Position numbers and translations under genes: made by a program
Assembly: GCA_049579585.1 (NCBI GenBank)
Contig: JBAUOE010000105.1
Coordinates: 1-58,111, forward strand
Reading direction: 5' to 3'
DNA: 58,111 bases
Source: Solirubrobacterales bacterium
Lineage (GTDB): Bacteria; Actinomycetota; Thermoleophilia; Solirubrobacterales; 70-9
In this document: piece by piece, positions 5,049 through 53,716 of the stretch
How the letters are laid out: each line of letters starts with the position of its first letter
Position numbering within the stretch: the stretch's first letter is position 1
The notes under the pieces: generated by a model
Databases searched by the model: none
Seen by the model: only the letters and a program-made list of their open reading frames with translations
Told to the model about the DNA's origin: nothing

Positions 5049-5109
5049 ACTAAGCAGTCATTATCGCAAGTCGGGCAGGTCGGCGTCTGCCTCGTGCCAG
5101 AATCAAGTC

Positions 5110-5817: not shown

Positions 5818-5820
5818 TTC

Positions 5821-6925: not shown

Positions 6926-7014
6926 ACAGGCGCATTGTGCCTCATACCAATCCGAAGACGGGCCGTGATGCACATTCTTCATACTCTGCAGTCTTGAAGG
7001 AATCCAGACAGATA

Positions 7015-13966: not shown

Positions 13967-13989
13967 ACGGCGCCAACTGGCCCGGCTTC

Positions 13990-16965: not shown

Positions 16966-17019
16966 GGAGGAGCGTTGCCTGATTCCGGTTTGGTCGGACC
17001 ACTCGGACCACTCGGGCGA

Positions 17020-22083: not shown

Positions 22084-22854
22084 TTAGTTGCGTGGTGTCC
22101 AGCGGAAAAACCGGATCGCCAGGAGAAGCCCGGCGATGCCCCAGATTCCCACCACCAGCAGATCCCCCCACTCGAAACCGGATCCGACGGTATTCGGGCT
22201 GTAGGCCGAAAAGAATGCTTCGAAGAAGTCGCGGATCGGAAAGTGGTTGGCGAACGAAAGTACGCCTTCCGGAATCTCACTTTCCGGAATGAAGATGCCG
22301 GAAAGGAAGTAGAGCGGCAGGGTGATCAGGTTGGTGATCGCCGGTGCCGCTTCGCGGGAAGGAATGATTGCGGTCATCGCGATTCCCAGGCAGCAGAATG
22401 ATGCGGCGCCAATTATCAGGGTCACCGCGACCGCAGGCAGGCGATCCCATGGAATCGGCGCGCCGTAAAGAACTTTGCCGATCAGGGTCACCACGACGAC
22501 CATCAGCACCGAAATCACGATCGCGTTGCCGACCCGTCCGGCAATGAAAACCCATGGCGGCAGCGGGGTGCCCCGGCCACGTTTGAGCAGCCCGGCCTCA
22601 CGGCTGATCGTCAGGTTAGTCGCGAGACTGACCATGGTGGCCGAAACGACAGCGAGGGTGATGATGGCCGGCACGTAGTAGGTGGTGGTCGGCAGGTTGC
22701 CGAGCGACTCGATCTCTTCGCCGCCAAAGATCGTGGCAAAGATCAGCATGAAGATCACTGGCAGCATCGCGGTGAAGAACACCGATGCCGGATTGCGCCA
22801 GAAAATCTTCTGGGTGTACTTGAACTCGTGGAGGACCAGGCGCACCGAATTCAT
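22084..22854 (-). CDS. ABC-2 type transporter permease
   Basis: 256 aa and about 6 TM helices. 4-nt overlap with the upstream ATPase gene. Confidence 0.75.
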   Translation of the reverse strand: MNSVRLVLHEFKYTQKIFWRNPASVFFTAMLPVIFMLIFATIFGGEEIESLGNLPTTTYYVPAIITLAVVSATMVSLATNLTISREAGLLKRGRGTPLPPWVFIAGRVGNAIVISVLMVVVVTLIGKVLYGAPIPWDRLPAVAVTLIIGAASFCCLGIAMTAIIPSREAAPAITNLITLPLYFLSGIFIPESEIPEGVLSFANHFPIRDFFEAFFSAYSPNTVGSGFEWGDLLVVGIWGIAGLLLAIRFFRWTPRN

Positions 22855-23768
22855 GATTCAGTCACCTGAAGGTAAACGTCTTCGAGGCTCGGTCGTTTGA
22901 CTTCGAGCCCGTCGAGGTCCACCCCGTTCTCGATCGACCAGCCGGTCAGCCGGTTCAGGTCGGCCACCGTGTCGTGGCTTTCGATAGTCACCAGTGATTC
23001 ATTGTCGGCCCCACCGGCCGCGATCGTGACCCGCTCAAACCCGGTGAACTGTTCGGCATCGGTTCCGGCCGGAAGGTGAAATGTGATCCTGGTCGGCAAC
23101 TGGTCCCGGTCGCCGAGGTTCTCCGGGGTGTCTTCGGCAACGATCCGGCCCTCGTTGATGATCGCGACCCGGTCGGCAAGGAACTGGGCCTCGTCCATGT
23201 AATGCGTTGTCAGGAGGACGGTCTTTCCGAGGTCGCGCAATCCGGCGATCATTTCCCACGCCTGGCGTCGGGCCGAAGGATCGAAACCGGTGGTTGGCTC
23301 ATCCAGGAAAAGGAGTTCGGGGTCACCAACCAGGGCGATGCCAACATCCAGCCGGCGCTGCTGGCCGCCGGAAAGCTTTCCGGCACGGACGTCAACCTTG
23401 TCTTCGAGCCCGACCAGGGTGATCACTTCATCGACCGGCCGTGGGTTGCTGAAGTATCCGGCGTACAGCTCAAGCGATTCCCGCACGGTGAGCTTCGGTT
23501 CCAGGGTCGTGCCCTGCAGCACGATTCCGATGCGCTCACGCCAGGCACGCGTGGGCCGGGCAGGGTCCACACCGAGCACCTCGACATCGCCACCGTCACG
23601 ATCGCGATACCCCTCGAGGATCTCGACAGTGGTCGTCTTGCCGGCGCCGTTCGGACCCAGCACGGCCAGAATCTCTTCCGGCTCTACCTGGAGATCAATC
23701 CCTTTGACGGCCTCCAGCTCACCATAGGACTTGCGCAGTCCACGAATGGATATGACCGGTTCAGACAC
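22851..23768 (-). CDS. ABC transporter ATP-binding protein (DrrA-like)
   Basis: Walker A GPNGAGKTT, signature LSGGQQRR, Walker B LLFLDEPTTGFD. Confidence 0.88.
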   Translation of the reverse strand: MSEPVISIRGLRKSYGELEAVKGIDLQVEPEEILAVLGPNGAGKTTTVEILEGYRDRDGGDVEVLGVDPARPTRAWRERIGIVLQGTTLEPKLTVRESLELYAGYFSNPRPVDEVITLVGLEDKVDVRAGKLSGGQQRRLDVGIALVGDPELLFLDEPTTGFDPSARRQAWEMIAGLRDLGKTVLLTTHYMDEAQFLADRVAIINEGRIVAEDTPENLGDRDQLPTRITFHLPAGTDAEQFTGFERVTIAAGGADNESLVTIESHDTVADLNRLTGWSIENGVDLDGLEVKRPSLEDVYLQVTES

Positions 23769-23824
23769 TCGGTGATCCTACGTCCCTCAGCTCTTCGGGC
23801 GGTTCCAGCCCGGACCGCGACGCC

Positions 23825-24724
23825 TCAGGGGATGTCGCGATGGTTGACCCGGACAACCACGTCATCCCGGCTGGAGAGATCGCGCCAGATCCTCTCGGCG
23901 ACAGTTACCGAACGGTGTCGCCCACCGGTGCAGCCGATCGCGATCGTGAGGTGGCTCTTGCCTTCGGTCACATATGCCGGGACCAGAAACTCGAGCAGCG
24001 GCAGCAGCCGCCCGTAGAATTCGCCCGCCTGGGTTCCGGCCTCGACGTACTCCCGCACTTCGGAATCCAGCCCGGTCATGGGGCGTAATTCGGTTACGTA
24101 GTGCGGGTTGGGCAGGAACCGAACGTCAAGGGTCAGGTCGGCGTCACGCGGTGGACCATTCTTGAATCCGAAAGTGAGCAGGGTGACTGCCATCCGGCCT
24201 TCGTCTTCGTTCGAAACCATTTCGTCCGAGATCCGGCGGCGTAGCTGTGCCGCTGTGTCCATTGAAGTGTCCATGACCATGTCGGCCCGGGCCCGAAGCG
24301 GTGCCAGCAACTTGCGTTCGGCTTTGATCCCTTCGAGGATCCGGCCTTCGGGTGCCAGCGGGTGGCGGCGGCGGGTCTCTTTGTAACGGTCGGTGAGGAT
24401 CTCTTCGTTTGCTTCGAGGAAAAGGACCTCGGGGCGCGGACCATCGGATTCCAGGTCCTCGAGAACCTGGAGAAGCTCATCGAAATACTCGCCGCTCCTT
24501 ACGTCCGAGACGACAGCGGCCCGCTCCACCCCGCTGCCAGGAAGGCGGAACATCTCTCCCAGCGCTCCGATCATCTGTGGCGGAAGGTTGTCGACGCAAA
24601 AGTAACCGTTATCTTCGAAAGCGGCGATCGCTTCCGACTTGCCGGCGCCGGAATGGCCGGTGATTACGACCATGTTCACGTTCTTGGCGGGCGTGTCTTC
24701 CACCGACTGCTTTTGATCCGGCAA
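23825..24724 (-). CDS. rapZ: RNase adapter / nucleotide-binding protein RapZ (YvcJ family)
   Basis: P-loop GHSGAGKS, DVRFLPNPHY and a C-terminal GCTGGRHRSV motif. Confidence 0.88.
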   Translation of the reverse strand: MPDQKQSVEDTPAKNVNMVVITGHSGAGKSEAIAAFEDNGYFCVDNLPPQMIGALGEMFRLPGSGVERAAVVSDVRSGEYFDELLQVLEDLESDGPRPEVLFLEANEEILTDRYKETRRRHPLAPEGRILEGIKAERKLLAPLRARADMVMDTSMDTAAQLRRRISDEMVSNEDEGRMAVTLLTFGFKNGPPRDADLTLDVRFLPNPHYVTELRPMTGLDSEVREYVEAGTQAGEFYGRLLPLLEFLVPAYVTEGKSHLTIAIGCTGGRHRSVTVAERIWRDLSSRDDVVVRVNHRDIP

Positions 24725-29958: not shown

Positions 29959-30042
29959 TCCCTAATTGTAATCACATTCCGAAAGCAGTACCAACTTCCG
30001 ATAATCATGGTTGGTCTCATCGCCGGATCGTTGAGCCGGTGG

Positions 30043-31947
30043 TCACCTCACCAGTTCAACCTCCATCGGCATCGGTTCGATCGCTCCAACCCCGCCGAGC
30101 AGGGCCAGGATCCGGGCGACATAAGCCTGGGTTTCGGGATAGTCCGGAATGCAGTTACAGGGCGAAACGGCACCCGGCCCGGCGTTGTAAGCAGCCAGAG
30201 CAAGTGCCGGTGAACCGAACTGGTCCAGCAGGTCGGACATCAGGTGCCCCTGGGCATCGATCGCCGCCACCGGATCGAACGGATCGCCGAGCCCGTATGC
30301 GGCGGCCGTGCCCGGCATGAACTGCGCGATTCCCTGCGCCCCGGCCGGCGAACCGGCGTTCGGATCGAAGTTGGATTCCGCGTAGAGCTGAGCCGCCAGC
30401 AGAGCCGCCGAAACACCCCACTTCATGGCCGATGCGAGGATCGGCTTTCGGTACCTGGCCGGCACGAAAGCAGGCAGCGCCGCGGCCGATGCCGACTCAG
30501 GACCACCCGTGGTCTGAACCCGGTTGCCCGCACCCGAGCAAGGCGCCGGCCCGGCCACGAAGCCGAAATGCCACGCTTCCCATGAGTACCTCTTCGTGAA
30601 TCCGAATCGGGTGGCGTTGGCCGCCAGCCAGCCGTAAGCCGTGGACGGACCGAGATCAAGCTCGGTTGCGCAGCGATGAAGCGATGTACCTGGACGGGCG
30701 ACCCAGGTCGGATCCGGGTTGGCGGCGAACAGGGCAGCCTGTTCAGCATCAGACCGAAACGCGGAGGTGATCGAGAGGGTGACCCCGGCCGCTGCGGCCG
30801 CAGCCGACATCCGGTCGAAAGCGACAGCGACATCGGGACGCATGCCTTTTCCCTGCCTTTCGGACAACGGACCTGAATATCCACCACCCGTCGCCACCGT
30901 TGGAACGGAACCCATAGAAACCGGTGCGCCGACCCGGGCTTCGGCCCAGTCCGACGTCGCTCCGGCCGGTCCTCCGCTCTCAACCCGGGAGCGAATCGTG
31001 ACGATCGTCCTCACCGGTGCGTACGAAATCGAATCGGGGAACCTTACCGAGACTCGAATCGGGGAGGCTCCATTTTGCACGGCGATCCTGGTCGCGGTCA
31101 ACCGGGCCCGCATCAGGTACTCGAACTTGCTCATGTGGGCAGGGTTCGGCGCGCCGTTCGGCAGCACCGGTGGCGCCAGCAGACGGGGCAGGTCGTTCTT
31201 CATCGAACGGGCCGATGAGAGGGCTGAAAGGTCAGCGACCGATTGCGCCCTCGCTTTGCCCGTGATCGCACCCGCGATCGCGGCCAGAGCAACCGTGGTC
31301 AGGACGAGAACGAAAACCGCACCGAGAACCAGCGGCGTGGCCTGACCGCTTTCGCCTGCCAAAGACGCCTGCTTCCGGAGCCCGGCTCTGGCCCGTGCGG
31401 ACTTCCTGCCGGCAAGCAAACGGCGAGAGGCGAACCGCCCCGGGGCTTCCGGCACGAGTTCGACGGCATCGGCGAAATCTCCGGCTTCCCGGAGGGCAAG
31501 TTCGGAGAGCGCCCGCAGACCCTCCTGCTCCGTCGGATCAAATCGAAAGAGCACCTGATCCGCCCGGAAGTCGGGCGAATCGATCAGCTCCCGATAGCGG
31601 TCCGGCGGAAGGGCAACCGCCAAGCGCACCTGGCCGTCGAGAGCATCGATCAGTTGCAGGACACTCTCGACAGCGGAGGCATCGTCAGGGACTGTCGCGA
31701 CGCAGAGCGCGCCGCGTGAACGAAGTTCGATTGCCGGGCCCCGGGCTGCGATCGAACCCTGCAGTTCTTTAGCCCAGGCCGATGCGACCAGGGTTGCCGG
31801 ACGGGGGCGCTGCGAGGTGACTTCGATCAGCAGGGCGCCTTCATCAATTTCGATCTGGCCCTGGAGAGCCAGGGCGGCGGTCGCCGTGGTCCCGCCCGCA
31901 CCGGCGAGTGCCGTGACCAGAGTCAGGTATTGCCCCGGCCGCCTCAT
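30043..31947 (-). CDS. multidomain envelope protein: unknown cytoplasmic N-domain, TadE/G-like membrane helix, VanY/M15 peptidase domain and SLT lytic transglycosylase domain
   Basis: 634 aa with an ATGA start/stop overlap with the upstream TadE-like gene. aa ~200-250 'GQATPLVLGAVFVLVLTTVALAAIAG...AQSVADLSALSSA' is TadE/G-like. 'SAFRSDAEQ..PGTSLHRCATELDL..WEAWHFGF' matches the M15 H/D/H zinc pattern. 'AESNFDPNAGSPAGAQGIAQFMPGTA...AAYNAG' is an SLT motif. Confidence 0.75.
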   Translation of the reverse strand: MRRPGQYLTLVTALAGAGGTTATAALALQGQIEIDEGALLIEVTSQRPRPATLVASAWAKELQGSIAARGPAIELRSRGALCVATVPDDASAVESVLQLIDALDGQVRLAVALPPDRYRELIDSPDFRADQVLFRFDPTEQEGLRALSELALREAGDFADAVELVPEAPGRFASRRLLAGRKSARARAGLRKQASLAGESGQATPLVLGAVFVLVLTTVALAAIAGAITGKARAQSVADLSALSSARSMKNDLPRLLAPPVLPNGAPNPAHMSKFEYLMRARLTATRIAVQNGASPIRVSVRFPDSISYAPVRTIVTIRSRVESGGPAGATSDWAEARVGAPVSMGSVPTVATGGGYSGPLSERQGKGMRPDVAVAFDRMSAAAAAAGVTLSITSAFRSDAEQAALFAANPDPTWVARPGTSLHRCATELDLGPSTAYGWLAANATRFGFTKRYSWEAWHFGFVAGPAPCSGAGNRVQTTGGPESASAAALPAFVPARYRKPILASAMKWGVSAALLAAQLYAESNFDPNAGSPAGAQGIAQFMPGTAAAYGLGDPFDPVAAIDAQGHLMSDLLDQFGSPALALAAYNAGPGAVSPCNCIPDYPETQAYVARILALLGGVGAIEPMPMEVELVR

Positions 31948-32273
31948 CGTGACTTAACGCTCGCGCTCGAGGTCAGCGAGATCCGGTCCGAAAGCGCAGT
32001 AAACGGAGACGGCGGTCGGATCGTCACCTCGACCCGTTCGCCGAAGCGTCTCACCGAAACCCTCGACCGGGCCCAGCCGGGAAGGGCATCCCTCACCGCC
32101 GGTTCGACCGGTTTCCCCTGGACCAGTGCCACTGCCCCGGCTGTTGCAGCACCGTCTGCCACCGTCAGCGAATAGCCGGTGGCGAGCAACTGGAAGCAGA
32201 CCAGACCGGCCAGCGCCAGGACAGCCATCCCGGCCACCGCTTCGACCGATGCCTGTCCGGATTCAGCCTTCAC
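31944..32273 (-). CDS. TadE-like pseudopilin-type protein
   Basis: 109 aa. The N-terminus 'ESGQASVEAVAGMAVLALAGLVCFQLL' fits the TadE/TadF leader plus hydrophobic helix pattern. Confidence 0.6.
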   Translation of the reverse strand: MKAESGQASVEAVAGMAVLALAGLVCFQLLATGYSLTVADGAATAGAVALVQGKPVEPAVRDALPGWARSRVSVRRFGERVEVTIRPPSPFTALSDRISLTSSASVKSR

Positions 32274-32613
32274 CGTATGAAGCCGATCCGTAGACGAATG
32301 CTTCCGGCATCCCGGGCAGCAGTTGCGGGATCTTTACCCCCACCTCGACCCCATCGTCCCGAGAGACTCTCATTCCCGCACGAAGCGGACCGGGAAGAGC
32401 GTGCTCAGCCGCGCTGCGAGGTTCCCGGCCAGTCAGCACCGCGCGTGCGCCGGCCTTTGCCGCTATTCCCGCCGACCAGAATGCATGGCCCGCCACGGCG
32501 ATCTGACCGGCGATCAGGAGGGATATCAACACGATCGGAATCGACCCGATCAGTTCGATCGAGACCGCGCCGCGATCTCCCTCAATCAGCTGTTCAAGCC
32601 CGCCTTTCTCCAT
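32263..32613 (-). CDS. TadE-like pseudopilin-type protein
   Basis: 116 aa. 'DRGAVSIELIGSIPIVLISLLIAGQIAVAG' fits the TadE N-terminal motif. It overlaps the next gene by 11 nt. Confidence 0.65.
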   Translation of the reverse strand: MEKGGLEQLIEGDRGAVSIELIGSIPIVLISLLIAGQIAVAGHAFWSAGIAAKAGARAVLTGREPRSAAEHALPGPLRAGMRVSRDDGVEVGVKIPQLLPGMPEAFVYGSASYGEG

Positions 32614-32715
32614 GTCGCGAGCCTGCCCGAAGTCGGCTCAACGGTTGCTGGCAGGCTGTGAAATATCGCAAACGAAACAGGCACCCGAGTGTGCCCCGGC
32701 AACGGCGGTCCGAAG

Positions 32716-33630
32716 TCAGCGACGGAAAAACGAACCGATCGAACGAACCGGCCGGGTAATCCGCCAGCTCAGCGAATTCTCGTATGCGACACGAATCGCC
32801 CGGGTCCGATCCCCTTCTTCGCCGATGTGCCGCCCGAGATTCTCCACTTCGCGCCGGATCTGCTCCAGGTTGTGCCTGAGGGCCACAGCTTCCCGGGCGT
32901 CCGGGCCCGGTTCAAGCAATTCCGCCGCGGTGATCGAAACTTCCTTCTTTCTCATCATCAGCCAGCACTGGTTGTGAACCCACGGGCTGGCTACAACCAG
33001 TTCAAAGGCCCGGCCCCAGTGTTCCCGGACCCACCAGTCAGACATCAGCACCATCGGCCCACCCTCGTCCCACGGCCGATCATGGAAAAGGGTGTTCATG
33101 CCAATGCGATTCTCATCCCAGGCTTCCCCGGCGATCTCCTCCGAGTTCCACTCGCCCATGTAGCTGGCCATCAGGAAACCACCGGGCTTCAGCACCCGGT
33201 GAAGTTCGAGCAGCCACTCTGCCGAGTTGCCGGCCAGATGCGTGAACACCGAGATTGCCCACGCAAAATCGAAACTCTCCGATTCGAAAGGGAGCGGCGG
33301 ATCGATGCCGGCCCGCAGGACATTGAGTGGCGGGCAGAGGTTCTCCTCCAGCCATTCGATGCTGCGCCCGTCAATGTCGGCCCCCCAGAACTCTCCCGAT
33401 TCAGCTTCAGCCAGGAAGTGCCGGAGGGTTCGACCGGCGCCACAGCCGAAATCCAGGACCCGTTTGCCTTCCAGGCCGAAATCCCGGGGAAGCAAGGCCA
33501 GCAATTGATCCCGCGCGAACGCCCCTTTTGCTTCGTATGAAGCGAAGCCTTCCGGATCATTGCCCTCGAGGCTGTGGACCCGATTGGCCAAATCGAAGGG
33601 TGGGTACGGATACCCGGCGCTCCGGCTCAA
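32716..33630 (-). CDS. class I SAM-dependent methyltransferase
   Basis: Motif I VLDFGCGAGR, then FDFAWAISVFTH and LKPGG. Confidence 0.8.
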   Translation of the reverse strand: MSRSAGYPYPPFDLANRVHSLEGNDPEGFASYEAKGAFARDQLLALLPRDFGLEGKRVLDFGCGAGRTLRHFLAEAESGEFWGADIDGRSIEWLEENLCPPLNVLRAGIDPPLPFESESFDFAWAISVFTHLAGNSAEWLLELHRVLKPGGFLMASYMGEWNSEEIAGEAWDENRIGMNTLFHDRPWDEGGPMVLMSDWWVREHWGRAFELVVASPWVHNQCWLMMRKKEVSITAAELLEPGPDAREAVALRHNLEQIRREVENLGRHIGEEGDRTRAIRVAYENSLSWRITRPVRSIGSFFRR

Positions 33631-34367
33631 ATCCGGTCCCCCGTGCTGATCCGGCTGATTACCGGCGAATGGTCCGACAGGCGAATCATCAAATCCGACT
33701 CTGGATCGGGCACATCACGCCGTTCCGGACTCCAGCTGGAGGTTGGTCGCTCGACGATGCCACCGCGAAGCAGGATGTGGTCGATCGATCCGTGCTCGGT
33801 CGGCAGGGAGAATCCGTATTCATCGTGAAGCTGCTGGAAAACCTCGCTCTTTCCCGGCCGGATGTTGAAATCTCCTCCGAGAACCAGCGGCCGGTCATCG
33901 CCAGCCCACTTGATTGCTTCTGCGGCGGCGCGCATTACATCCCGTTCGCCTTTCGCCTGACCGGTGCTGGCATGGAAATTGGCGACACAGAGCCCGTCGG
34001 CCATCCTGACCATCGACATCGTCCGCCGCTCCGGTAACCAGCAGAGCGTTTTGCTTGCCCGCTGCGTGACCAGAGAACCCGGCCGGTCCTTACGAACCAG
34101 GATCAGGTTGCTGCCACCTTCCCAGCTTCCCGGCAGATGCGGACGCAACCGGGCCACCGGCGACATGACCGGTGACATCCAGTTTCGTGAAGTCAGGGCC
34201 CTGAACTCGAACGACGAAGTTGCCCTGGCCAGACGTTCATCCCAGCGGGGCGGCACTTCCTGGAGCAGGGCGATGTCCCATTTGGCCGCGGCCAAGAAGG
34301 CTGCGAACTCGTCGAACAGGTCCCGATTGAGCAGCACGTGTTCACGGCCAGGCACCCGGCGTCCCAT
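33627..34367 (-). CDS. endonuclease/exonuclease/phosphatase (EEP) family protein
   Basis: 246 aa with LQEV, GGDFN and a C-terminal SDHSPV motif. 4-nt overlap with the methyltransferase gene. Confidence 0.75.
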   Translation of the reverse strand: MGRRVPGREHVLLNRDLFDEFAAFLAAAKWDIALLQEVPPRWDERLARATSSFEFRALTSRNWMSPVMSPVARLRPHLPGSWEGGSNLILVRKDRPGSLVTQRASKTLCWLPERRTMSMVRMADGLCVANFHASTGQAKGERDVMRAAAEAIKWAGDDRPLVLGGDFNIRPGKSEVFQQLHDEYGFSLPTEHGSIDHILLRGGIVERPTSSWSPERRDVPDPESDLMIRLSDHSPVISRISTGDRI

Positions 34368-34456: not shown

Positions 34457-34828
34457 TCAGTAGCTCTTCGCCTCCGACCAGACCAGCCAGATCGTGACGC
34501 CGGCCGATCCCATCAGCAGAATCCAGGCGAGAGTTCCCAATCCGGTGCTGAACATCTGGTTGCTGCCGGCGATCATCAGCACGATCAGTCCGACCGCCGA
34601 GAAAAGGACCAGACGCCTGGAGTCAGGCATGGCCAGCATGGTCAGACGGTTTGCCAGATACGCCTGGTAGACCGCAAAAGAGATCGCCGTCAGGAAAGCC
34701 ATGGAAATGGCGAGCAGCACGGCGCTGGCGAAAGCTCCACCGCCCGGCAGAAAAGCGACACCCAGCGCGAGCAGCGCGATGATCGCAATATTGCGTGCCG
34801 CAGTCATGTGAAGAAGCTTATCCCGCAA
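34457..34828 (-). CDS. small integral membrane protein (about 4 TM), unknown function
   Basis: 123-aa hydrophobic ORF that overlaps the upstream small ORF by 11 nt. Confidence 0.55.
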   Translation of the reverse strand: MRDKLLHMTAARNIAIIALLALGVAFLPGGGAFASAVLLAISMAFLTAISFAVYQAYLANRLTMLAMPDSRRLVLFSAVGLIVLMIAGSNQMFSTGLGTLAWILLMGSAGVTIWLVWSEAKSY

Positions 34829-35063
34829 CCATTATTACGAGGCCGAAAACGATGATCGTGACCGTCAAGGCCAGCGAGATCGCGCCGACCGCGAGCGAAC
34901 CGATCGCGGCCGCAGTCCGTCCCTCAAGGTTGTAATCCACGTACTTTGCGGTGCCACGAATGCCGAGGGAAACCACGATCGTGAGCAGGATTGCCGCGAC
35001 CGCACCGGCGACCACCGATTGCAGCAGTTCAGACCAGTTGACAACGGTCGCGAGGAGGATCAC
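34818..35063 (-). CDS. small integral membrane protein (2 TM), unknown function
   Basis: 81-aa ORF with a 4-nt overlap with the pit stop. Confidence 0.5.
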   Translation of the reverse strand: MILLATVVNWSELLQSVVAGAVAAILLTIVVSLGIRGTAKYVDYNLEGRTAAAIGSLAVGAISLALTVTIIVFGLVIMVAG

Positions 35064-38981: not shown

Positions 38982-40001
38982 TTACTGGAGGGATGACTCC
39001 AGCGCGACCCAGACCCCTTGTCGGGACTGTTCCAGCCAGAGCCGCTTGAATCGTTCGTACATCATGCGTCGCCTGGTCAGCAGGTGAACTATGAGCAGTT
39101 CCTGCCCGCGATAGTACGTCCGGTTGGGCGCTCCCTGGACCAGGATCGGATCGAGGTCACGGCTGCCTCTCGCCCGGTCGATGAGTGTCGCGACATCCTG
39201 TTCTTCGAACAGTCGGATCTGTTCACGGACTTCTGGCAACACCAGGTCGCAGTCCCTGATTTCACCGAGGATTTCCTGGAGTCCACGGGCAGCGCGACGT
39301 GCGGTATGTGCCTGGGAGCCGAGACCTTCCGCGGTCAGTTCGAGGGCGTAACGCAACCTCTCGGCTGCCACTCGTATCCGGTGTTGCGCTTTCACCGCTT
39401 CTGGTTCAAGCGCATCCGGGGCCGATGAACGCAGGCGGGCAAGCCGGATGCCGACCAGCTCCCTGGTTCTTTCCGGAACTACCTCCAGCGCGTGGTGGTC
39501 GGAGCGGCCGTCGATCTCCGGGTCGTCGATCGCTACGTCGGAGAGATCCTCGATCCGGACGCGGAACGCCTGCATGCGGCGACCATGTACCGACTGGGCA
39601 AGTGTGCGGTTCGCATCGGACTGCTCGCCGCGCAGGCGGTCGGTCAACCTTCGCATTCCCTCCTGCCCGGCAGGATCCATCTCAACCGCGGCTGCTTCGA
39701 CAATCTCGATTATCCGGTCGAGGTCCCGACGTTTACCGACGGCGCTGCTCAGCGCCCTGACTTCTTCCCGACCACCGCGATACTGAGATTTCGAGAAGCA
39801 GGGACGAAAAATCTCGATCGCCGCGCGAAGGCGGCGAGTGGCCAGCCACATCGCTTCTGCCGGACTGGTGTCGGTTACATCGAGCAGGCCGATACTCAAG
39901 TTCGATATCTGGTCGACCCGGTGTTCGAGTGCGTATGCCGCAGCAGTCCGAAATTCCTCGTCCGGAGCATCGTCGGATTCGGATTTAGCGGGAACCATCA
40001 T
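38982..40001 (-). CDS. CHAD domain-containing protein
   Basis: 339 aa, all-helical and Arg/His-rich with 'ATRRLRAAIEIFRP', 'GKRRDLD' and 'HRIRVAAERLRYALE', typical of CHAD. Confidence 0.8.
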   Translation of the reverse strand: MMVPAKSESDDAPDEEFRTAAAYALEHRVDQISNLSIGLLDVTDTSPAEAMWLATRRLRAAIEIFRPCFSKSQYRGGREEVRALSSAVGKRRDLDRIIEIVEAAAVEMDPAGQEGMRRLTDRLRGEQSDANRTLAQSVHGRRMQAFRVRIEDLSDVAIDDPEIDGRSDHHALEVVPERTRELVGIRLARLRSSAPDALEPEAVKAQHRIRVAAERLRYALELTAEGLGSQAHTARRAARGLQEILGEIRDCDLVLPEVREQIRLFEEQDVATLIDRARGSRDLDPILVQGAPNRTYYRGQELLIVHLLTRRRMMYERFKRLWLEQSRQGVWVALESSLQ

Positions 40002-40029
40002 CGGACGGCAGCCTATATCCCCGACTTGC

Positions 40030-40935
40030 TCAACTGGTCATTGCGGGATCGCTGATCCCTTTATCCCCGCTGAGCATGTCGAGCACGATTCCTTCGCGGA
40101 TTCCGCCCTTGCCGATCTGCAGGGGCTGGCCCAGCATCTCGGATACTTTTTCGAGGATCAGGACCCCGGTCGGCAGGATCTTTACCCGCACCGGATCGAG
40201 TTCGAACTGTTTGCCGACATCGGCGGCGGGATCCCCGCAGAGCACGCGGATCCCGCGTTCCAGGGTTTCGTATTCGAGCATCACCCCGACCAGTCGTTTC
40301 AATGAAGTCGCGCTGCCGCCAACCGCGACGGCCTGGTCAGGAATCTCCATGTCGAAGTCACTGAATTCATCTTCGATGCGATCACGGATCTTGCGAATTT
40401 CTGATGCGGAAGGAGGATCACTTTCAACGAGTTCGTCGGCAAGAATGCCTGATCCGACCGACCAGGACTTGACCTCGCTAACCCCGCCGTCGATCGTGCC
40501 GAAGGTGATTTCGGTCGAGCCACCGCCAACATCGACTACCGCAATACTGCCTTCGGCCGGGTGGCCAAGAGCTTTGGTGGCCCCGATGAACGCGAGCCTC
40601 CCTTCTTCTTCTCCGCTGATGATTTCGACCGGTATGCCGGCTTTCGCCTCGATCGCCTCAACGAATTCCTCGCTGTTCTCCGACTCCCGGATCGCGGCCG
40701 TGGCAACAGCCCGGAACTCGGTGGCACCCAGTTCACGGGCGAGATGCACCTGGGTCGCGACCACCTCGGCGACTTCGGCGATTTTCTCCTGCGAGATTCG
40801 CCCTTTGCTGTCCCTGGCTTTACCGATACGGGTATAGGCCCGCTGCTCCATGATCTTCGCCAACTGGCCATCCTTGGGTTCAGCCACCAGGATGCGGGTT
40901 GTGTTGGAACCTATGTCGATGGCGGCGCGCAGCAT
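40030..40935 (-). CDS. ppx: exopolyphosphatase, short Ppx/GppA family
   Basis: 301 aa with intact ASKHA motifs AAIDIGSNTTR, SGEEEGR and VVDVGGGSTE. Confidence 0.88.
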   Translation of the reverse strand: MLRAAIDIGSNTTRILVAEPKDGQLAKIMEQRAYTRIGKARDSKGRISQEKIAEVAEVVATQVHLARELGATEFRAVATAAIRESENSEEFVEAIEAKAGIPVEIISGEEEGRLAFIGATKALGHPAEGSIAVVDVGGGSTEITFGTIDGGVSEVKSWSVGSGILADELVESDPPSASEIRKIRDRIEDEFSDFDMEIPDQAVAVGGSATSLKRLVGVMLEYETLERGIRVLCGDPAADVGKQFELDPVRVKILPTGVLILEKVSEMLGQPLQIGKGGIREGIVLDMLSGDKGISDPAMTS

Positions 40936-41001
40936 GGAATTGGCTGGGCTGATCTTCGCAGAAAGACCGGATGCGCCCGTGGGGACTGCCGCGTCCTCAA
41001 T

Positions 41002-41017
41002 CCGGTTCCGGAACCGG
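41002..41017. promoter_or_regulatory. perfect 16-nt palindrome CCGGTTCCGGAACCGG in the phoU-ppx spacer
   Basis: Self-complementary over all 16 nt. It sits in the only sizeable gap (126 nt) inside the phosphate gene block. Confidence 0.3.
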
Positions 41018-41061
41018 AACTTTCTCTTCTGAACGACAGACGCTTTCAGGACGGCATCCGG

Positions 41062-41760
41062 TCAGACCGGATGAGACGCATCTTCGAACTCACGGAACAG
41101 ACCGGTAACGACAAACGCCACCTGCTCCCCGACGTCAACGGCGTTGTCACCCATGCGTTCCAGTGCCCTTGCGGCAAGCAGCATGGTCATCGCCCATTCA
41201 CGACGGTCAGGATCGTCACCGATTTCGATCGCGAGGCTGAAGCACTCCTTGTTAAGACGGTCAACCTTGTCGTCCTGGAGGACCAGATCCATCGCCTGCT
41301 TCACGTCCCGCTCGGAGAAAGCACGCTTTGCCTGAACCATTTCGAGCTTCACGTGTTCGCCCATGGTCAGGATCTTCTTGACCATGCGCTCGTCGATCGG
41401 CGGTGTGTGTCCGACCAGGGGGATCAATTTGCAGACGTTCACGCACTGGTCCCCCATGCGCTCGATGTTCTTGATGACATGGAGAAGGGCCGAAATCAGA
41501 CGCAGGTCTGTTGCGACCGGTGACTGTGTCGCGAGCAGCGTGATCAGGCCCTGATGGACTTCCAGGTAACGACCGTCGATCTGGTCGTCGTCACCCATGA
41601 CGATCTGGGCCAGCTCGATGTCCTGATGCTGGACTGCGCTGAGGGTTCGGTCGAGGGATTTGGCGACCATGTCGAAACCGCCCAGGGCCTGCTCTTCAAG
41701 TCTGGTCAGTTCTTCCTGATACTGAACGCGAATCCGATTGCTCACATGGAGTTCAGACAT
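41062..41760 (-). CDS. phoU: phosphate signalling complex protein PhoU
   Basis: 232 aa with two PhoU repeats (D.IDGRYLEVH..., ERMGDQCVN / ERMGDNAVD). Confidence 0.92.
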   Translation of the reverse strand: MSELHVSNRIRVQYQEELTRLEEQALGGFDMVAKSLDRTLSAVQHQDIELAQIVMGDDDQIDGRYLEVHQGLITLLATQSPVATDLRLISALLHVIKNIERMGDQCVNVCKLIPLVGHTPPIDERMVKKILTMGEHVKLEMVQAKRAFSERDVKQAMDLVLQDDKVDRLNKECFSLAIEIGDDPDRREWAMTMLLAARALERMGDNAVDVGEQVAFVVTGLFREFEDASHPV

Positions 41761-41765
41761 TTCGC

Positions 41766-42710
41766 CTAACCGACCTTTCCGGTGACGTAATCCTCGGTCC
41801 GCTGATCGGCCGGGTTGGTGAATATCTTCTCGGTTTCGTTGTATTCGACCAGCTGTCCCCAGCGGTTGTTCTCGGTCGAGTCGAGTTCGACGATCAGGAA
41901 GGCGGTCTTGTCGGAAACCCGGGCCGCCTGCTGCATGTTGTGCGTGACGATCACGATCGAGTACTGCTCTTTCAGTTCGGACATCAGGTCCTCGATCTTG
42001 CCGGTCGAGATCGGATCGAGCGCGGAACAGGGCTCGTCCATCAGGATGACTTCGGGATCAACCGCCATGGTGCGGGCGATGCAGAGACGCTGCTGCTGGC
42101 CGCCGGACATCCCATACGCGTTGTCCTTGAGACGATCCTTGACTTCGTCCCAGAGCGCGGCGCCGCGCAGAGCTTTCTCGACCCGCTCGTCGATGTCCTT
42201 CAGTCCCAGCACACGGGGTCCGAATGCGATGTTGTCGTAGATCGACTTGGGAAACGGATTCGGCTTCTGGAAAACCATGCCGATCATCTTGCGCACCTGC
42301 ACCGGATCAACTTTCGGTCCGTACAGGTCTTGGCCGTGGTAGAGGATCTCCCCGTCCACACTCGCCGAGGCAACCAGGTCGTTCATCCGGTTGAGACAAC
42401 GCAACAGGGTGCTTTTGCCGCAACCGGAAGGACCGATGAGAGCAGTGACTTCATTGCGGAAGATGTCCATCGAAACTCCCTTGACGGCGGGCTTGCCACC
42501 GTAGGAGACGGTCACGTCGTTGACCTCGAAGACCTTTTCCTTGTTCCAGACGTCCCCACTTTCCGGTGCCGGCTCGGCAGTGACAGCAATCTGCTGACTG
42601 AGGCCTTTCTCGTGCTCGCGTGACGGTTCGGGGCTCAAAGTCATCTCGTCTTTCGGGTCATTTTCAGTCAGTTGTCCGTTTATACCTGAAGTCATCTTTA
42701 CTCCTACCAC
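41766..42710 (-). CDS. pstB: phosphate ABC transporter ATP-binding protein PstB
   Basis: [22 protein letters not shown] and [12 protein letters not shown] motifs. It has an N-terminal extension, and ATG 42695 is an alternative start. Confidence 0.93.
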
Positions 42711-43642
42711 TGTTGCTCGTATCGGTTTCGCAGCCAGACCGCAAAGGAGTTCATTGCCAGGAGCACGATCAGCATCACGATGACGCCGGCCGCCGCCAAC
42801 ACCTTGAACTCATCCTGTGGGCGGGATGCGTATTGGTAGATCAGCACCGGAAGTGCTGAGAAACTCTCCCCGAAGAAGGTGGGGTTGAAGGTCACGAAAG
42901 TCGTTGCTCCGACGAGAAGCAGCGGGGCTGTCTCACCAATCGCTCTCGAAATCGCGAGGATCACGCCGGTGGCGATTCCGGGAATTGCGGCTGGAAGCAC
43001 CTGCTTGCGGATCGTTTGCCATTCGGTGGCACCGAGGGCGAGTGAACCTTCACGTACCGATGGCGGTACCGCCCGCAACGCCTCCCGGCCGGCGAGGATC
43101 ACCACTGGCAATACCAGCAACGCCAGGGTCAAGGAACCAGCGGCGAGAATGAAGCCGAGGTCCAGCGGCCCGCGCACGATGAAGGCCAGTCCGAGGATGC
43201 CGTAAATGATCGACGGGACGCCCGCCAGATTCTGGATGTTCAGTTCGATCGCCCGGTTCCACCATCGGTTGCTGTCGGCGTACTCCTCCAGATATATGGC
43301 GGAGCCCACTCCCAGCGGCACGATCAGCAGGACAACGCCGAGGATCAGGTAGATGGTGCCGATCAGAGCTGGCCGGAAACCGGCCTCCGCGACGTTCAGG
43401 GACGACGGGGGATTGGTGAACAGCGCCATGTTGAAGCGCGGTCCGCCTTCGATGATCGCCTGGATTATCAGCGCGGCGAGTCCGGTGAGTGCGATTACCA
43501 GCGCCAGCAGAAGGAAAGCAAGGAAAAGGTTGCCCTTGATCCGATCCTTGGCAGGCTGTTTGGTGAGTGAGGACGTCGTTACGGCCCGGGCTCCGGCTGT
43601 GGCAAGTCGGGTCCGTTCGGACCCGGGTGTCTTGAGGCTCAT
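42704..43642 (-). CDS. pstA: phosphate ABC transporter permease PstA
   Basis: 312-aa polytopic protein with the EAA-like loop '[15 protein letters not shown]'. 4-nt overlap with pstC. Confidence 0.9.
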
Positions 43643-44598
43643 TCGTATACCTCCCTGAAGCGGCGGACCAATCGGATCGCGAAGATGTTCATGAAGAGCG
43701 TCATGACGAACAGCAGCGAGCCCACCGCGAAAATGGTGTCGTAGGTGATGGTTCCGGTACCGATGTCGCCCGTGGCAGTGGTGCCGATGAAGGCGGTCAT
43801 TGTCTGGACCGGACTGGCGAAAGCAAAGCTTGTGGTTGCCTGGCTGCCGGCGGCGAGAAGAACGATCATGGTTTCACCGATCGCCCTCGATCCGGCCAGG
43901 ACGATTGATGCGACGATGCCACTCATGGCGGCGGGCACCACGACTTTGGTGGCGACCTTCATCCGGGTCGAACCGAGTCCATAGGCGGCTTCCCTCAGTC
44001 CCCCCGGGACCGATCGCATTGCGTCGTCGGAGATTGAAGCGATGATCGGGGTGATCATCAGGCCGATCGCAACACCGGCAACGCCGGCGGCAAATGGCGT
44101 TGATTGAAGAGCGGGGATGAAGCTTTCGAGGAACGGCTTGAGCGCGGTGATCGCGAAAAGTCCGATTGCCACTGTGGGGATCCCGGCCAGAACCTCAATT
44201 ACCGGCTTCACCATCTTGCGGCCCTTTGGTGATGCGTATTCGCTGAGCCAGATGGCAATCAGCAAGCCGATCGGGACGGCGAAGAGCATGCCCCAGAGGG
44301 TTGTGCTCAAGGTGCCGATCACGATCGAGAGGACTCCGAAGGTCGCCGGGGTGAAGGTCGGTGCCCAGTCGGAGTGGAAGAAGAAGTCGGCTGGGCTGAC
44401 CTCGCCGAAGAAACTGATCGTCGGCAGCAGCAGCGAAATTACGATGCCGGTGGTGGTCAACACCGAGACGATTGCGCACAAGGCAAGCAGTCCCTTGATG
44501 ATCTTCTCTCCGTATCGCGGAGATGAAGCCTCCAGGCTCCGGGGCGGCGATGCCGCCCCGGAGGTCCCGGAGATTCCGAACGTGCCGGATGCTTCCAT
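43639..44598 (-). CDS. pstC: phosphate ABC transporter permease PstC
   Basis: 319-aa polytopic protein with the EAA-like loop 'REAAYGLGSTRMKV'. Confidence 0.9.
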   Translation of the reverse strand: MEASGTFGISGTSGAASPPRSLEASSPRYGEKIIKGLLALCAIVSVLTTTGIVISLLLPTISFFGEVSPADFFFHSDWAPTFTPATFGVLSIVIGTLSTTLWGMLFAVPIGLLIAIWLSEYASPKGRKMVKPVIEVLAGIPTVAIGLFAITALKPFLESFIPALQSTPFAAGVAGVAIGLMITPIIASISDDAMRSVPGGLREAAYGLGSTRMKVATKVVVPAAMSGIVASIVLAGSRAIGETMIVLLAAGSQATTSFAFASPVQTMTAFIGTTATGDIGTGTITYDTIFAVGSLLFVMTLFMNIFAIRLVRRFREVYE

Positions 44599-44625
44599 TT
44601 CAGTCAGTTCCTGATCTCGTTCGGT

Positions 44626-45603: not shown

Positions 45604-45706
45604 TAAGTCTCCTTTGGTTTTCTTACTGAGCTTTTGCTCTTCATGGCAGCCCCTTTGGCCGCCGGTCATTTGACTGTCCGGAGGAGAATCGCAGCGCAGG
45701 TTCAGT

Positions 45707-51163: not shown

Positions 51164-51227
51164 GTTGTTGGCATCCTCGCAGCTTTGATCCAGTTGGTTT
51201 TGTCGGAAATGTGAAGGGTCGTGGATT

Positions 51228-53643: not shown

Positions 53644-53716
53644 AGGCCTGCGGTACCCTTACTCGTGGAGTCCGTCACGGGAGGCGTGGGGGGAAATCGA
53701 ATTGGGAGGAATCATC

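Follow-up and report, generated by a model that had tools for sequence, protein, structure and literature searches.

A core three-gene cassette of Solirubrobacterales as a candidate Tad minor-pilin tip complex carrying two peptidoglycan hydrolase domains

Heterotrimers of TadE-, TadF- and TadG-like proteins form the Tip complexes of Tad pili, whose large subunit has an exposed, variable C-terminal domain, and three of the four Tip clusters of Myxococcus are located away from the motor loci (PMC12075869). These complexes (KilL/KilM/KilN or TadE/TadF/TadG, from Myxococcus xanthus and others; Herrou et al. 2025, PMC12075869) are the system closest to a three-gene cassette found in a Solirubrobacterales bacterium, on a stretch of DNA of 58,111 nucleotides that was analysed as a whole and is referred to here as the window. 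The first-pass annotation of the window could not assign the cassette to a known system; the TadE/F/G Tip complexes do fit, and the derivation from Tad that it proposed is supported. In both cases two small and one large pilin-like genes are clustered, every member carries a prepilin-peptidase site (in the cassette a predicted one), the large TadG-like subunit has an extra C-terminal domain, which in the Tips is predicted at the pilus extremity, and the cluster may be far from motor genes. In contrast to the Tip complexes, whose cargo is a domain of unknown fold, the cassette carries two recognisable enzymes (VanY and SLT), its host is a monoderm actinobacterium, it is found once per genome, in invariant form and always at the same housekeeping site, and a predicted ParA/MinD-fold protein is either fused to its large subunit or placed ahead of it.

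Modular pilins, in which a domain is grafted onto the pilin, occur widely (PMC10191384; PMC6916266). In the monoderm Streptococcus sanguinis, PilB (vWA) and PilC (lectin) likewise have a functional domain that a short linker joins to the C-terminal end of a minor pilin (PMC10191384, PMC6916266), and both belong to a three-member tip complex, a candidate parallel to the cassette. They are, however, pilins of the T4aP class, whose signals are of the N-methylation type and whose modules serve adhesion, whereas the cassette displays Tad-class signals and catalytic wall-hydrolase modules. Within the same phylum, the flp-tad operon of M. tuberculosis encodes Rv3655c (TadE, NF041390; Glu5 present), which is the best family match of both small proteins of the cassette (sm1 and sm2), and Rv3654c (TIGR03816; no Glu5), which is the best match of the N-terminal half of the pilin module, all of these family matches being below curated cutoffs. 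Unlike the cassette, the two mycobacterial genes lie inside a tadZ-tadA-tadB-tadC-flp operon, and their products are short proteins without the enzyme domains of the large protein.

Two further groups of envelope proteins invite comparison. In GspL of the T2SS a cytoplasmic nucleotide-binding-fold domain is fused via one TM helix to an outer domain, and in T4aP machines PilM is a separate cytoplasmic nucleotide-binding-fold protein that binds the short cytoplasmic N-terminus of PilN. This fused/split duality resembles that of the N-terminal domain of the cassette's large protein, although GspL and PilM are actin-like and the latter domain is predicted to be ParA/MinD-like; neither GspL nor PilN is known to have the prepilin motif or the enzymes of the large protein. 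Envelope-spanning machines also possess specialised hydrolases, namely VirB1, the Gram-positive T4SS proteins TcpG, PrgK and TraG, flagellar FlgJ and gp16 of phage T7. Common to these and the cassette is an SLT-type enzyme, often combined with a peptidase, for a local gap around a trans-envelope structure (in the cassette a proposed role). Unlike the cassette, they are separate secreted or TM proteins or parts of the virion, and none of them is known to include a pilin module or to share an operon with TadE paralogues.

The cassette consists of three overlapping genes on the minus strand, as all features described below, and its coordinates as first annotated are borne out by the list of open reading frames, both overlaps by direct reading of the sequence. 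Two TadE-type minor-pilin-like proteins, sm1 (32263–32613, 116 aa) and sm2 (31944–32273, 109 aa, GTG start), precede the large protein (30043–31947, 634 aa), in which a predicted ParA/MinD-fold domain, a TadG/Rv3654c-like pilin module, a VanY domain and an SLT domain follow one another. The reading frames of sm1 and sm2 share 11 nt (gtgaaggctga), those of sm2 and the large protein 4 nt (atga). The 5′ limit of the unit is marked by a terminator-like hairpin (32679–32696) 3′ of the upstream methyltransferase gene, proposed from a consensus scan only, and the 3′ limit by an 85-nt gap with a promoter-like site before the downstream TetR gene (29965–29994). The GC content of the unit is slightly raised (0.658 versus about 0.61).

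Both small proteins show the class III pattern of TadE/TadF, that is, a short charged leader with Gly as its last residue, then Glu at +5 and a subsequent hydrophobic α1N segment. The leader of sm1 is MEKGGLEQLIEGDRG, followed by AVSIE (cleavage region ...DRG|AVSIELIGSIPIVLISLL), and the leader of sm2 is MKAESG, followed by QASVE (cleavage region MKAESG|QASVEAVAGMAVLALAGL). In alignments of 35–37 orthologues Ser18 and Glu20 (Glu+5) of sm1 are invariant and Gly15 (-1) is retained in at least 90%, while in sm2 Gly6 (-1), Gln7 and Glu11 (Glu+5) are invariant, giving the motif G|QAxxE; the sm1 motif G|[STAQ][AV]S[IVL]E is kept across about 70 loci. Profile–profile alignment identifies the two proteins as paralogues (hhalign probability 99.5%, E 5e-23). 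No Pfam match was obtained for either window protein in the Pfam scan, and their matches to NF041390 are sub-threshold (sm1, E 4.8e-3; sm2, E 1e-3 with 19.5 bits versus a cutoff of 40). Among the sm2 orthologues, 36 of 37 match NF041390 (TadE_Rv3655c; best E 2.2e-6) and 21 of 37 match Pfam TadE (PF07811; best E 1.5e-3), again all under the curated cutoffs. Of the TadE-type N-termini noted earlier, the prepilin-type motifs are thus strongly conserved, but the profile matches to PF07811 and NF041390 stay below threshold.

In the large protein the corresponding signal lies at the end of a basic, disordered linker (31345–31392; pLDDT <50 at residues 187–202 in the AF2 model) that varies in length among orthologues and terminates in the class III motif ...AGESG(-1). 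At -1, 103 of 115 sequences have Gly and the other 12 have Ala, Glu is frequent at -3, and the leader end E-R/S-G|Q-A is common to the large protein and sm2. The adjoining pilin-like module (30913–31344, residues 202–345) starts with QATPL and has no Glu at +5; Gln202 and Pro205 are invariant and Leu206 is found in 112 of 115 large-protein sequences. According to AF2, a hydrophobic α1N continues into a helix of about 54 residues, which is followed by a second helix and a three-stranded sheet (helices 204–257 and 274–291, strands 299–340; pLDDT 85–95), and flexible linkers join the module to VanY and SLT. The TadE/G-like helix recognised in the first annotation is confirmed by PF13400 (Tad/TadE-G-like), which matches residues 201–247 with E 7e-6 and 26.7 bits, above the gathering score of 22.3. 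TIGR03816 (Rv3654c family) matches with its model positions 1–53 of 109 (E 6e-6), below the cutoff of 50.95. Profile comparison detected no kinship of the module to sm1 or sm2, and none was detectable to any solved pilin. Judging from the alignments, the class III signal motifs of all three proteins are under strong selection.

Upstream of the linker, residues 1–185 (N-domain, 31393–31947) are predicted by AF2 with a pLDDT of about 95 and adopt, according to AF2 and Foldseek, an α/β fold of the SIMIBI (ParA/MinD) class. Foldseek matches comprise the ParA-family ATPase 3ea0 (probability 1.0, TMt 0.47) as well as FleN, NifH, Etk/VpsO (BY-kinases) and Cfd1, with E-values of only about 1e-2 because the whole large protein served as query. 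The P-loop position reads GxAxG(S/T), with the glycines kept but without a conserved Lys of Walker A, and the homologue alignment likewise shows no conservation of an acidic residue (Asp) for Walker B. With neither the deviant Walker A Lys, nor the Walker B Asp, nor a profile match, the N-domain lacks the signature of ParA/MinD/TadZ ATPases, and searches returned no Pfam or HMM match and no PDB sequence match. The family is isolated, with only 291 clusters among 1.84e9 representatives, and standalone homologues of about 200–215 aa are abundant. The annotation of this segment as cytoplasmic is supported. The suspected eroded ParA/TadZ-type Walker A motif finds support from AF2 and Foldseek but not from HMM or PDB sequence searches, and the N-domain is, at the level of the fold only, probably a member of the ParA/MinD class from which the catalytic Lys has disappeared.

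The outer part of the large protein harbors the two enzymes, for both of which the Pfam matches and invariant catalytic residues agree with the H/D/H ligands and the SLT domain annotated before. The VanY/LAS (M15) zinc peptidase domain (30556–30846, residues 368–464) matches PF02557 above the gathering score (E 5.8e-13) and contains the family motifs of the SxHxxGxAxD and ExxH type as SLHRCATELD and EAWH, with His424, Asp431, Glu457 and His460 as well as Ser422 invariant in 115 homologues. Its PDB matches are the VanY-type carboxypeptidases 5hnm and 5zhf; the region is poorly modelled by AF2. The SLT domain (30166–30441, residues 503–594) matches PF01464 above the gathering score (E 1.6e-18), and Glu524-Ser525, GIAQF and AYNAG are invariant in the same 115 homologues. 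Glu524 is aligned with Glu478 of Slt70, which together with the profile places the domain among the family-1 lytic transglycosylases with a catalytic Glu in an E-S motif. Among PDB entries its best relatives comprise a phage tape-measure SLT, T7 gp16, Slt70 and MltF, and Foldseek matches the fold to MltF and Cj0843. From their residues, both catalytic centres appear intact and both domains look active.

Full-length orthologues are present in at least 520 species genomes, far more than chance would give, and more than 115 full-length orthologues of the large protein share 53–83% identity. The three-gene unit is a core, syntenic feature of Solirubrobacterales: the co-oriented, overlapping pilin-like genes recur in 86 loci, the chromosomal site between ppk–pit and maoC–uvrC is identical in 47–53 of 53 full loci, and the cassette is found on complete chromosomes of the order (e.g. 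OY969702.1, OY970074.1, OZ241364.1, OY969703.1) as well as in a Conexibacter woesei MAG. N-domain and hydrolase protein are fused in 47 of 81 loci (the window and 46 others) and split in 34. In the split loci the N-terminus of the hydrolase protein is a short charged leader that runs straight into G|QA, e.g. MGTRREEG|QALLL, and these leaders read as textbook prepilin leaders. Since 34 of 81 genomes encode the N-domain in a gene of its own, the 634-aa protein of the window is a genuine gene fusion; the doubt raised earlier, that this reading frame might really be two genes, applies to those 34 relatives but not to the conserved fusion in the other 47. In one locus (L085) the hydrolase gene lies 8 kb from the other three genes.

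No member of the T2SSE, T2SSF, Peptidase_A24, Flp or CpaB families is present in the Pfam-scanned open reading frames, which cover most of the 58 kb; the pst/phoU/ppx/CHAD block (38982–45669), pit, uvrC and ppk were identified instead via annotated syntenic relatives. A validated CpaF-core bait found nothing in the window and no tad motor within ±10 kb of the cassette in 86 related loci (1.63 Mb), nor was a Flp-like open reading frame found near the cassette. The absence of a Tad motor, prepilin peptidase and Flp gene from the 58 kb thus stands, and in the relatives, too, the unit is conserved away from tad loci rather than within or beside them. The remote position is no proof of motorlessness, because Tip clusters of Myxococcus are also remote (PMC12075869). 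A T2SS-F-family platform protein has been reported for the class Thermoleophilia (PMC6544083).

We favour, with a probability of roughly 45%, the reading that the cassette encodes a Tad (type IVc) minor-pilin tip or priming complex, with two peptidoglycan hydrolases as its cargo. Directly observed are the arrangement of the genes, their domains and motifs, their conservation and synteny, and the alternation of fused and split forms; from these we infer that the proteins are processed, form a complex, sit at a tip and cut the wall, and that a motor exists. In favour of this reading are the recurrence of the three overlapping pilin-like genes as one unit, the conserved class III signals, the short leaders of the split forms, the AF2 model of the pilin module, the intact catalytic centres, the precedents of the Tips and of modular pilins, the platform protein reported for Thermoleophilia and the PF13400 match above threshold; the sub-threshold matches to TIGR03816 and NF041390 appear consistent with it. 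The small proteins would act as TadE/TadF-type minor pilins, with the large protein providing a TadG/Rv3654c-type pilin module. All three would be inserted into the membrane N-in and recognised by the prepilin peptidase at G|xxxxE (sm1, sm2) or G|QATPL (large protein), after which their α1N helices may bundle and prime a Tad-type filament. In T2SS pseudopili the cap is a minor pilin without Glu5 (GspK type), and the large subunit, likewise devoid of Glu5, would sit on top of the bundle. During filament growth SLT would cut glycan strands and VanY/LAS stem peptides or cross-links, thus opening the thick monoderm wall ahead. The N-domain, either fused upstream of the signal motif or produced separately, would be a non-catalytic cytoplasmic partner that couples or positions the large subunit at the inner face, and genes elsewhere in the genome would supply the TadA/B/C motor, the peptidase and the Flp pilin, an arrangement like that of three of the four tip clusters in Myxococcus. 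Cleavage of the fused form, present in 47 of 81 genomes, is a strong assumption, since to our knowledge no prepilin has a folded domain of about 185 aa as leader. Also counting against this reading are the TadE matches under the curated cutoffs, the lack of detectable kinship of the pilin module to sm1, sm2 or solved pilins, and the absence of motor, peptidase and Flp genes within ±10 kb in 86 loci.

No such unprecedented cleavage is needed if the large protein stays uncleaved as a bitopic TadZ-like/TadG-like scaffold of a Tad machine, a rather doubtful alternative that follows the logic of GspL. Its pseudo-ATPase domain would then lie in the cytoplasm, linked by a TM helix to an outer module that keeps SLT and VanY in place over the machine to clear a channel. 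The true minor pilins would be sm1 and sm2, and in split loci the N-domain protein would dock onto the short N-terminus that the hydrolase protein has in the cytoplasm, in the manner of PilM and PilN. The interchangeable fused and split forms (47 versus 34) mirror GspL versus PilM+PilN, and the basic linker conforms to the positive-inside rule. Furthermore, the membrane component of monoderm Tad machines is either TadZ or TadG (PMC6916266), TadG and TadZ are listed as a CM sub-complex (PMC10191384), and the large protein unites a predicted TadZ-class fold with a TadG-like anchor. However, the strict Gly/Ala at -1 and the sm2-like leader end are predicted by a peptidase site and unneeded for an anchor, the N-termini of the split forms resemble ordinary prepilin leaders, membrane-tethered enzymes span only part of a thick wall, and a Tad machine is presupposed whose motor is putative in these genomes.

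Conversely, the favoured tip complex could be extended to a polyprotein prepilin cut at Gly201|Gln202, which we consider unlikely. The folded 20-kDa ParA/MinD-like domain could be a giant leader removed by prepilin peptidase, so that one chain could yield a cytoplasmic factor and a hydrolase-tipped pilin; such processing would make fusion and fission interchangeable. Beyond that, the three pilin-like proteins could form a self-contained, wall-drilling short pseudopilus that serves no long pilus and is core to envelope biogenesis in Solirubrobacterales.

Similarly improbable is a Tad-independent complex for peptidoglycan remodelling, in which pilin-like helices are co-opted as anchors or partners, no filament is formed, and a housekeeping hydrolase pair for growth, septation or daughter-cell separation is positioned or regulated from the cytoplasm by the ParA/MinD-fold domain. 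That 520 or more species genomes have the unit at a constant site (ppk–pit/uvrC) is a pattern of core physiology rather than of accessory pili, and its universal conservation in synteny with housekeeping genes is as compatible with a core role in the wall as with a pilus accessory. Motor, peptidase and Flp genes are absent nearby (±10 kb, 86 loci), and in L085 the hydrolase gene has drifted from the other three. ParA/MinD-class proteins are positioning devices, but the N-domain is devoid of the ATPase residues on which such positioning depends. The invariant Glu+5 in sm1 and sm2 and the Gly/Ala at -1 in all three proteins, hallmarks of peptidase processing and filament packing, should moreover have been lost in mere anchors.

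Very unlikely is an offensive use of the favoured architecture, with the hydrolases attacking the walls of neighbours for contact-dependent killing or DNA release. The Kil Tad pili of Myxococcus are a precedent, as they are proposed to kill prey through variable tip domains (PMC12075869), and phage proteins that pierce the wall (tape-measure protein, T7 gp16) are among the nearest SLT relatives of solved structure. Against it, the cargo is single and invariant, with 60–90% identity order-wide and no sign of the diversification typical for antagonistic effectors, an adjacent immunity gene is absent, and PMC12075869 makes no mention of hydrolases as Kil tip domains. A remnant of a mobile element, either a VirB1-like conjugation module or a phage lysin module with a TM anchor, is already disfavoured and least probable of all, for although Gram-positive T4SS hydrolases have the same architecture (TM + SLT + peptidase), the best PDB match is a phage tape-measure SLT and GC is slightly raised, the position is the same in 47–53 of 53 full loci, integrase, T4SS and phage genes are absent from the unit, and such modules are not known for TadE paralogues or prepilin motifs.

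How type IV and Tad filaments pass through the thick, mesh-like peptidoglycan of monoderms is a listed open question (PMC6916266). If the favoured tip complex is real, wall-cutting enzymes that form part of the filament-initiating complex of minor pilins would be a concrete answer, the cassette would represent, as far as could be established, the first Tad tip with a cargo of readable biochemical function, and the idea, put forward in 2025, of Tad pili customised by the TadG-like subunit would be extended. The predicted ParA/MinD-fold partner, fused or split, upstream of a prepilin signal is an oddity that bears on the delivery of minor pilins to the assembly platform. Experiments on the family are feasible, because hundreds of abundant soil species carry it and cultured relatives exist.

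The three overlapping minus-strand genes reported in the first-pass annotation are present. According to ORF calling, sm1 (32263-32613, minus strand, 116 aa) and sm2 (31944-32273, minus strand, 109 aa, GTG start), which encode two small TadE-type, minor-pilin-like proteins, are followed by the gene of a 634-aa protein (30043-31947, minus strand), denoted here as the large protein. Direct reading of the sequence confirms overlaps of 11 nt (gtgaaggctga) and 4 nt (atga). A consensus scan places a terminator-like hairpin after the upstream methyltransferase gene and a promoter-like site within the 85-nt gap ahead of the downstream TetR gene; given these signals and the overlaps, the three genes look like one transcription unit. 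In public gene calls the large protein is named "transglycosylase SLT domain-containing protein", "D-alanyl-D-alanine carboxypeptidase family protein" or not at all, and the equivalents of sm1 and sm2 carry no Pfam family.

The C-terminal part of the large protein harbors two peptidoglycan hydrolase domains, both above the Pfam gathering score, namely VanY (residues 368-464, E 5.8e-13) and SLT (residues 503-594, E 1.6e-18). Across 115 sequences the VanY/LAS motif residues H424, D431, E457 and H460 as well as the SLT motifs E524-S525, GIAQF and AYNAG are invariant, and E524 corresponds in the alignment to Glu478, the catalytic residue of Slt70. Foldseek searches against the PDB match the C-terminal structure with MltF and Slt-type transglycosylases, and the nearest solved SLT domains include those of a phage tape-measure protein and of T7 gp16, both wall-piercing.

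A single-sequence AF2 model of the full protein was discarded (pLDDT 41), and the model described here was calculated from a 115-sequence alignment. Residues 1-180 form a confident alpha/beta domain (pLDDT around 95), followed by a disordered basic linker (residues 187-202), a helix of about 54 residues (204-257), and a second helix with a three-stranded sheet extending to about residue 340 (pLDDT 85-95). In the model this helix-helix-sheet module is pilin-like in outline. Flexible linkers lead from there to the poorly modelled VanY and the well modelled SLT domain. Because the basic linker follows the positive-inside rule, the N-terminal domain of about 185 residues (N-domain) is predicted to be cytoplasmic and both hydrolases to lie outside the membrane, on the peptidoglycan side.

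The N-domain resembles SIMIBI NTPases, with 3ea0 ("ParA family ATPase") matched by Foldseek at a probability of 1.0 and a target TM-score of 0.47, and with further matches to FleN, NifH, Etk/VpsO and Cfd1; since the search was run with the entire chain, the E-values are no better than about 1e-2. The P-loop glycines are kept, while a conserved lysine and the Walker B acid are absent. The earlier suggestion of an eroded ParA/TadZ domain thus receives support from the fold alone. HMM and PDB sequence comparisons gave no match, and no family, ParA and TadZ included, was linked to the domain by a Pfam scan of 29 members, by a profile search of the PDB or by exhaustive profile comparison with 1.84e9 representatives. 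The N-domain family comprises only 291 clusters among these 1.84 billion representatives. As modelled, the N-domain is probably a degenerate, non-catalytic ParA/MinD-class module.

All three proteins carry pilin-like N-termini. In the large protein, residues 201-247 match the TadE/G-like "Tad" domain (PF13400) with an E-value of 7e-6, above the gathering score, and residues 199-251 weakly match the NCBIfam Rv3654c TadE-like family, below its curated cutoff. The TadE assignment of the small proteins proposed in the first-pass annotation stays below threshold: sm1 and sm2 both match TadE_Rv3655c of NCBIfam weakly and under the curated cutoff, and among 37 sm2 orthologues the actinobacterial TadE model is matched by 36 and Pfam TadE by 21, consistently but always sub-threshold. 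The two small proteins are paralogues (hhalign probability 99.5%, E 5e-23). Profile comparison found no significant relation between either of them and the pilin module of the large protein, and the pilin-module profiles returned only noise against PDB sequences.

The motifs around the presumptive peptidase site were compared in about 70 loci and, for the large protein, in 115 homologues. In sm1 (G|[STAQ][AV]S[IVL]E) Glu+5 is invariant and Gly-1 at least 90% conserved, and in sm2 (G|QA[ST][VI]E) the Gly, Gln and Glu+5 are all invariant. The large protein displays the motif E-x-G|Q-A-[TL]-P-L, with invariant Gln+1 and Pro+4, Leu and never Glu at position +5, and at position -1 a Gly in 103 homologues and an Ala in the remaining 12. 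Prepilin peptidases tolerate Gly and, less well, Ala at this position, and the T2SS pseudopilus is capped by a minor pilin devoid of Glu5. In type IV filaments the partner of Glu5 is the N-terminus of the adjoining subunit (PMC10191384).

Among 86 related cassette-bearing loci (L001-L086), BLAST and HMM searches detect the N-domain exactly once in 81, inside the hydrolase ORF in 47 and as a separate gene of about 200-215 aa in 34. The question whether the 634-aa ORF is really two genes therefore has a divided answer: the protein is a genuine conserved fusion in the window and in 46 other species-level genomes, and in 34 of the 81 loci there are indeed two genes. A second N-domain in loci with some 200 codons upstream of the motif was ruled out by HMM, which found one per locus. 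An N-domain profile search gave 2,482 matches; the 120 matches listed are all standalone proteins without a Pfam domain, unannotated or "hypothetical", and those that are named belong to Solirubrobacterales. The split arrangement is exemplified by L086, in which sm1 (117 aa), sm2 (109 aa), the N-domain gene (213 aa) and the hydrolase gene (442 aa) are tightly coupled by 4-nt overlaps. In split loci short charged leaders directly precede the hydrolase motif (MGTRREEG|QALLLVLGG, MDATRREDG|QALVLALGG, MEGRKEEG|QALLLALGS), and this N-terminus reads as an ordinary prepilin N-terminus.

In a tree of the hydrolase part most deep branches, including that of the window, are fused, and the split forms make up one large clade with a few fused members; the tree was calculated by neighbour-joining with midpoint rooting, which leaves the polarity uncertain. 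Insertions cluster at the junction between the N-domain and hydrolase genes of split loci and immediately downstream of it (L041 10630-11175, L047 8913-9914, L054 9367-9921, L073 8405-9018, L085 10729-19068 and L086 12014-12665). The inserts comprise VapBC/PIN and PhdYeFM toxin-antitoxin pairs and an NAD-dependent epimerase gene; one genome even has the two genes separated by 8.3 kb of metabolic (pyruvate:ferredoxin oxidoreductase) genes. An 801-aa hydrolase from a single assembly (P0075) continues into the MaoC dehydratase encoded downstream, probably by frameshift or assembly artefact rather than as a real fusion.

The large protein of the window has a 100% identical counterpart in a Solirubrobacterales MAG (class Thermoleophilia, Actinomycetota). 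The 120 matches listed (53-100% identity, mostly over 89-100% of the query) carry VanY and SLT, and about two-thirds of them have a precomputed Tad domain. Counting one genome per species, relatives occur in at least 520 species, and the 80 loci kept derive overwhelmingly from Solirubrobacterales or Thermoleophilia MAGs, a few being labelled Actinomycetes, Actinomycetota or uncultured bacterium. The chromosomal context is always the same in the 53 loci with full 10-kb flanks: ppk – phoU_div – pit – (mem81) – mem123 – [occasional inserts] – sm1 – sm2 – N-domain/hydrolase – [TetR, ECH] – maoC – ECH – uvrC. From this constant synteny the cassette is taken to be a vertically inherited core feature of Solirubrobacterales and not an island, and an origin from a mobile element is rejected as unlikely.

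Two small membrane proteins, mem123 (34457-34828, minus strand, 4 TM) and mem81 (34818-35063, minus strand, 2 TM), have no Pfam family. The gene of mem123 immediately precedes sm1 in all 53 full loci, including those without pit and phoU, and may be functionally tied to the cassette. Despite conserved motifs mem123 lacks a conserved Asp pair, and a role as minimal prepilin peptidase was ruled out. The class I methyltransferase and endonuclease/exonuclease/phosphatase (EEP) genes located between mem123 and sm1 (32716-34367, minus strand) recur in only 2 and 22 related loci, respectively, and are therefore regarded as lineage-specific inserts rather than cassette members. In one complete chromosome (L001, equal to L030) an integrated element just downstream of the cassette (12874-18367), with a large serine recombinase, a TraG/TrwB-type coupling protein and an M48 peptidase, displaces the usual ECH-uvrC.

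The other genes of the window are housekeeping genes (ccmE/F/H, argS, tgt, gap-pgk-tpi-pgm, rapZ, uvrC, acyl-CoA enzymes, pit, phoU-like, ppk, pst). System I cytochrome c maturation is represented by ccmF (2471-4597), ccmE (4647-5048) and ccmH (7572-8024), interleaved within 2145-8024 with an SDR and a GT2 glycosyltransferase gene. On the minus strand at 22084-24724, as in L002 and L003, rapZ, an ABC-2 transporter pair and a glyoxalase-like gene precede gap-pgk-tpi. Many actinobacteria have yvcK-whiA at this position; in the window no gene resembling whiA was noted. A 380-aa ORF (50300-51442, minus strand) has good coding statistics and no Pfam family. A secreted S8 subtilase-family protein of 1371 aa (53702-57817, plus strand), most of it without a Pfam match, ends in an extremely lysine-rich tail (...KKKKKVCKKKFKASKKKAKGNKKKIKRAKK...).

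As claimed beforehand, the 58 kb contain no recognizable motor: none of the T2SSE, T2SSF, Peptidase_A24, Flp and CpaB families was found in the Pfam-scanned ORFs, which cover most of the window, the pst/phoU/ppx/CHAD block, pit, uvrC and ppk being identified via annotated syntenic relatives outside the direct scan. On annotated plasmids a CpaF-core bait recovered genes labelled "CpaF family protein" with identities of up to 85%, and VirB11/TrbB with 35-50%; with this bait tblastn detected no secretion ATPase in the window and the 86 loci (1.63 Mb), the best match being a 28-residue P-loop (E 0.087). Strict and relaxed motif scans revealed no Flp-like small ORF near the cassette, the recurrent match being the 2-TM protein mem81. 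For a Tad motor in Thermoleophilia the literature gave a single hint, these taxa being absent from the supplements to Herrou 2025 and Denise 2019: a T2SS-F-family protein is a reported marker of Thermoleophiliaceae (PMC6544083). This indicates no more than the existence of such machinery somewhere in the class.

Among published systems the cassette comes closest to the Tip complex of Tad pili, whose anatomy it shares. The Tip consists of TadE-, TadF- and TadG-like proteins that all have a peptidase site; their predicted assembly is a heterotrimer shaped like a spearhead and seated on an alpha1N bundle, and a variable C-terminal domain of the large TadG-like subunit is displayed where the pilus ends (PMC12075869). 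Three of the four Tip clusters of Myxococcus lie away from the kil (tad) loci, and TadEFG complexes have been proposed as general customisers of Tad pili (PMC12075869). Foreign domains are also grafted onto the minor pilins of S. sanguinis (PMC10191384, PMC6916266). The cassette differs in its putative cargo, a peptidoglycan glycosidase and peptidase pair, and in an incomplete literature search no Tad or type IV minor pilin was found to be described with peptidoglycan hydrolases. By its sequence features it would be classed as a tip-type cluster of the Tad TadE/F/G kind whose cargo is enzymatic and whose ParA-fold partner is either fused or split. Everything beyond this anatomy we infer: on the strength of the Tip-like organization and its glycosidase-plus-peptidase cargo we tentatively propose, at a probability of roughly 0.45, a tip or priming complex that would open the wall in front of an emerging Tad-type filament or around it, with motor, prepilin peptidase and Flp pilin encoded elsewhere in the genome.

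The main difficulty for the tip proposal is the fused N-domain, as a folded leader of 185 residues is not known to us from any prepilin. Possibly the large protein is cleaved at G201|Q202, in which case fused and split forms would yield the same pair of products. Alternatively, the protein would stay uncleaved as a stationary TadZ-like/TadG-like scaffold that keeps the hydrolases positioned above the machine; where the genes are split, the N-domain would bind the short cytoplasmic N-terminus of the hydrolase protein. A parallel is provided by PilM, which binds PilN, and by GspL, in which both are fused. Monoderm Tad machines moreover have TadZ or TadG as a membrane component (PMC6916266). We consider such a scaffold possible but less likely than the tip. 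A wall-remodelling complex independent of any pilus would suit the universal, housekeeping-like conservation, whereas the strict retention of Glu5 and of Gly or Ala at position -1 speaks against it; we consider it slightly less likely than the scaffold. An offensive, Kil-like role of the cassette is unlikely.

How pili cross the monoderm wall is a stated open question (PMC6916266). With its putative wall-cutting tip complex, the cassette provides a concrete handle on this passage.
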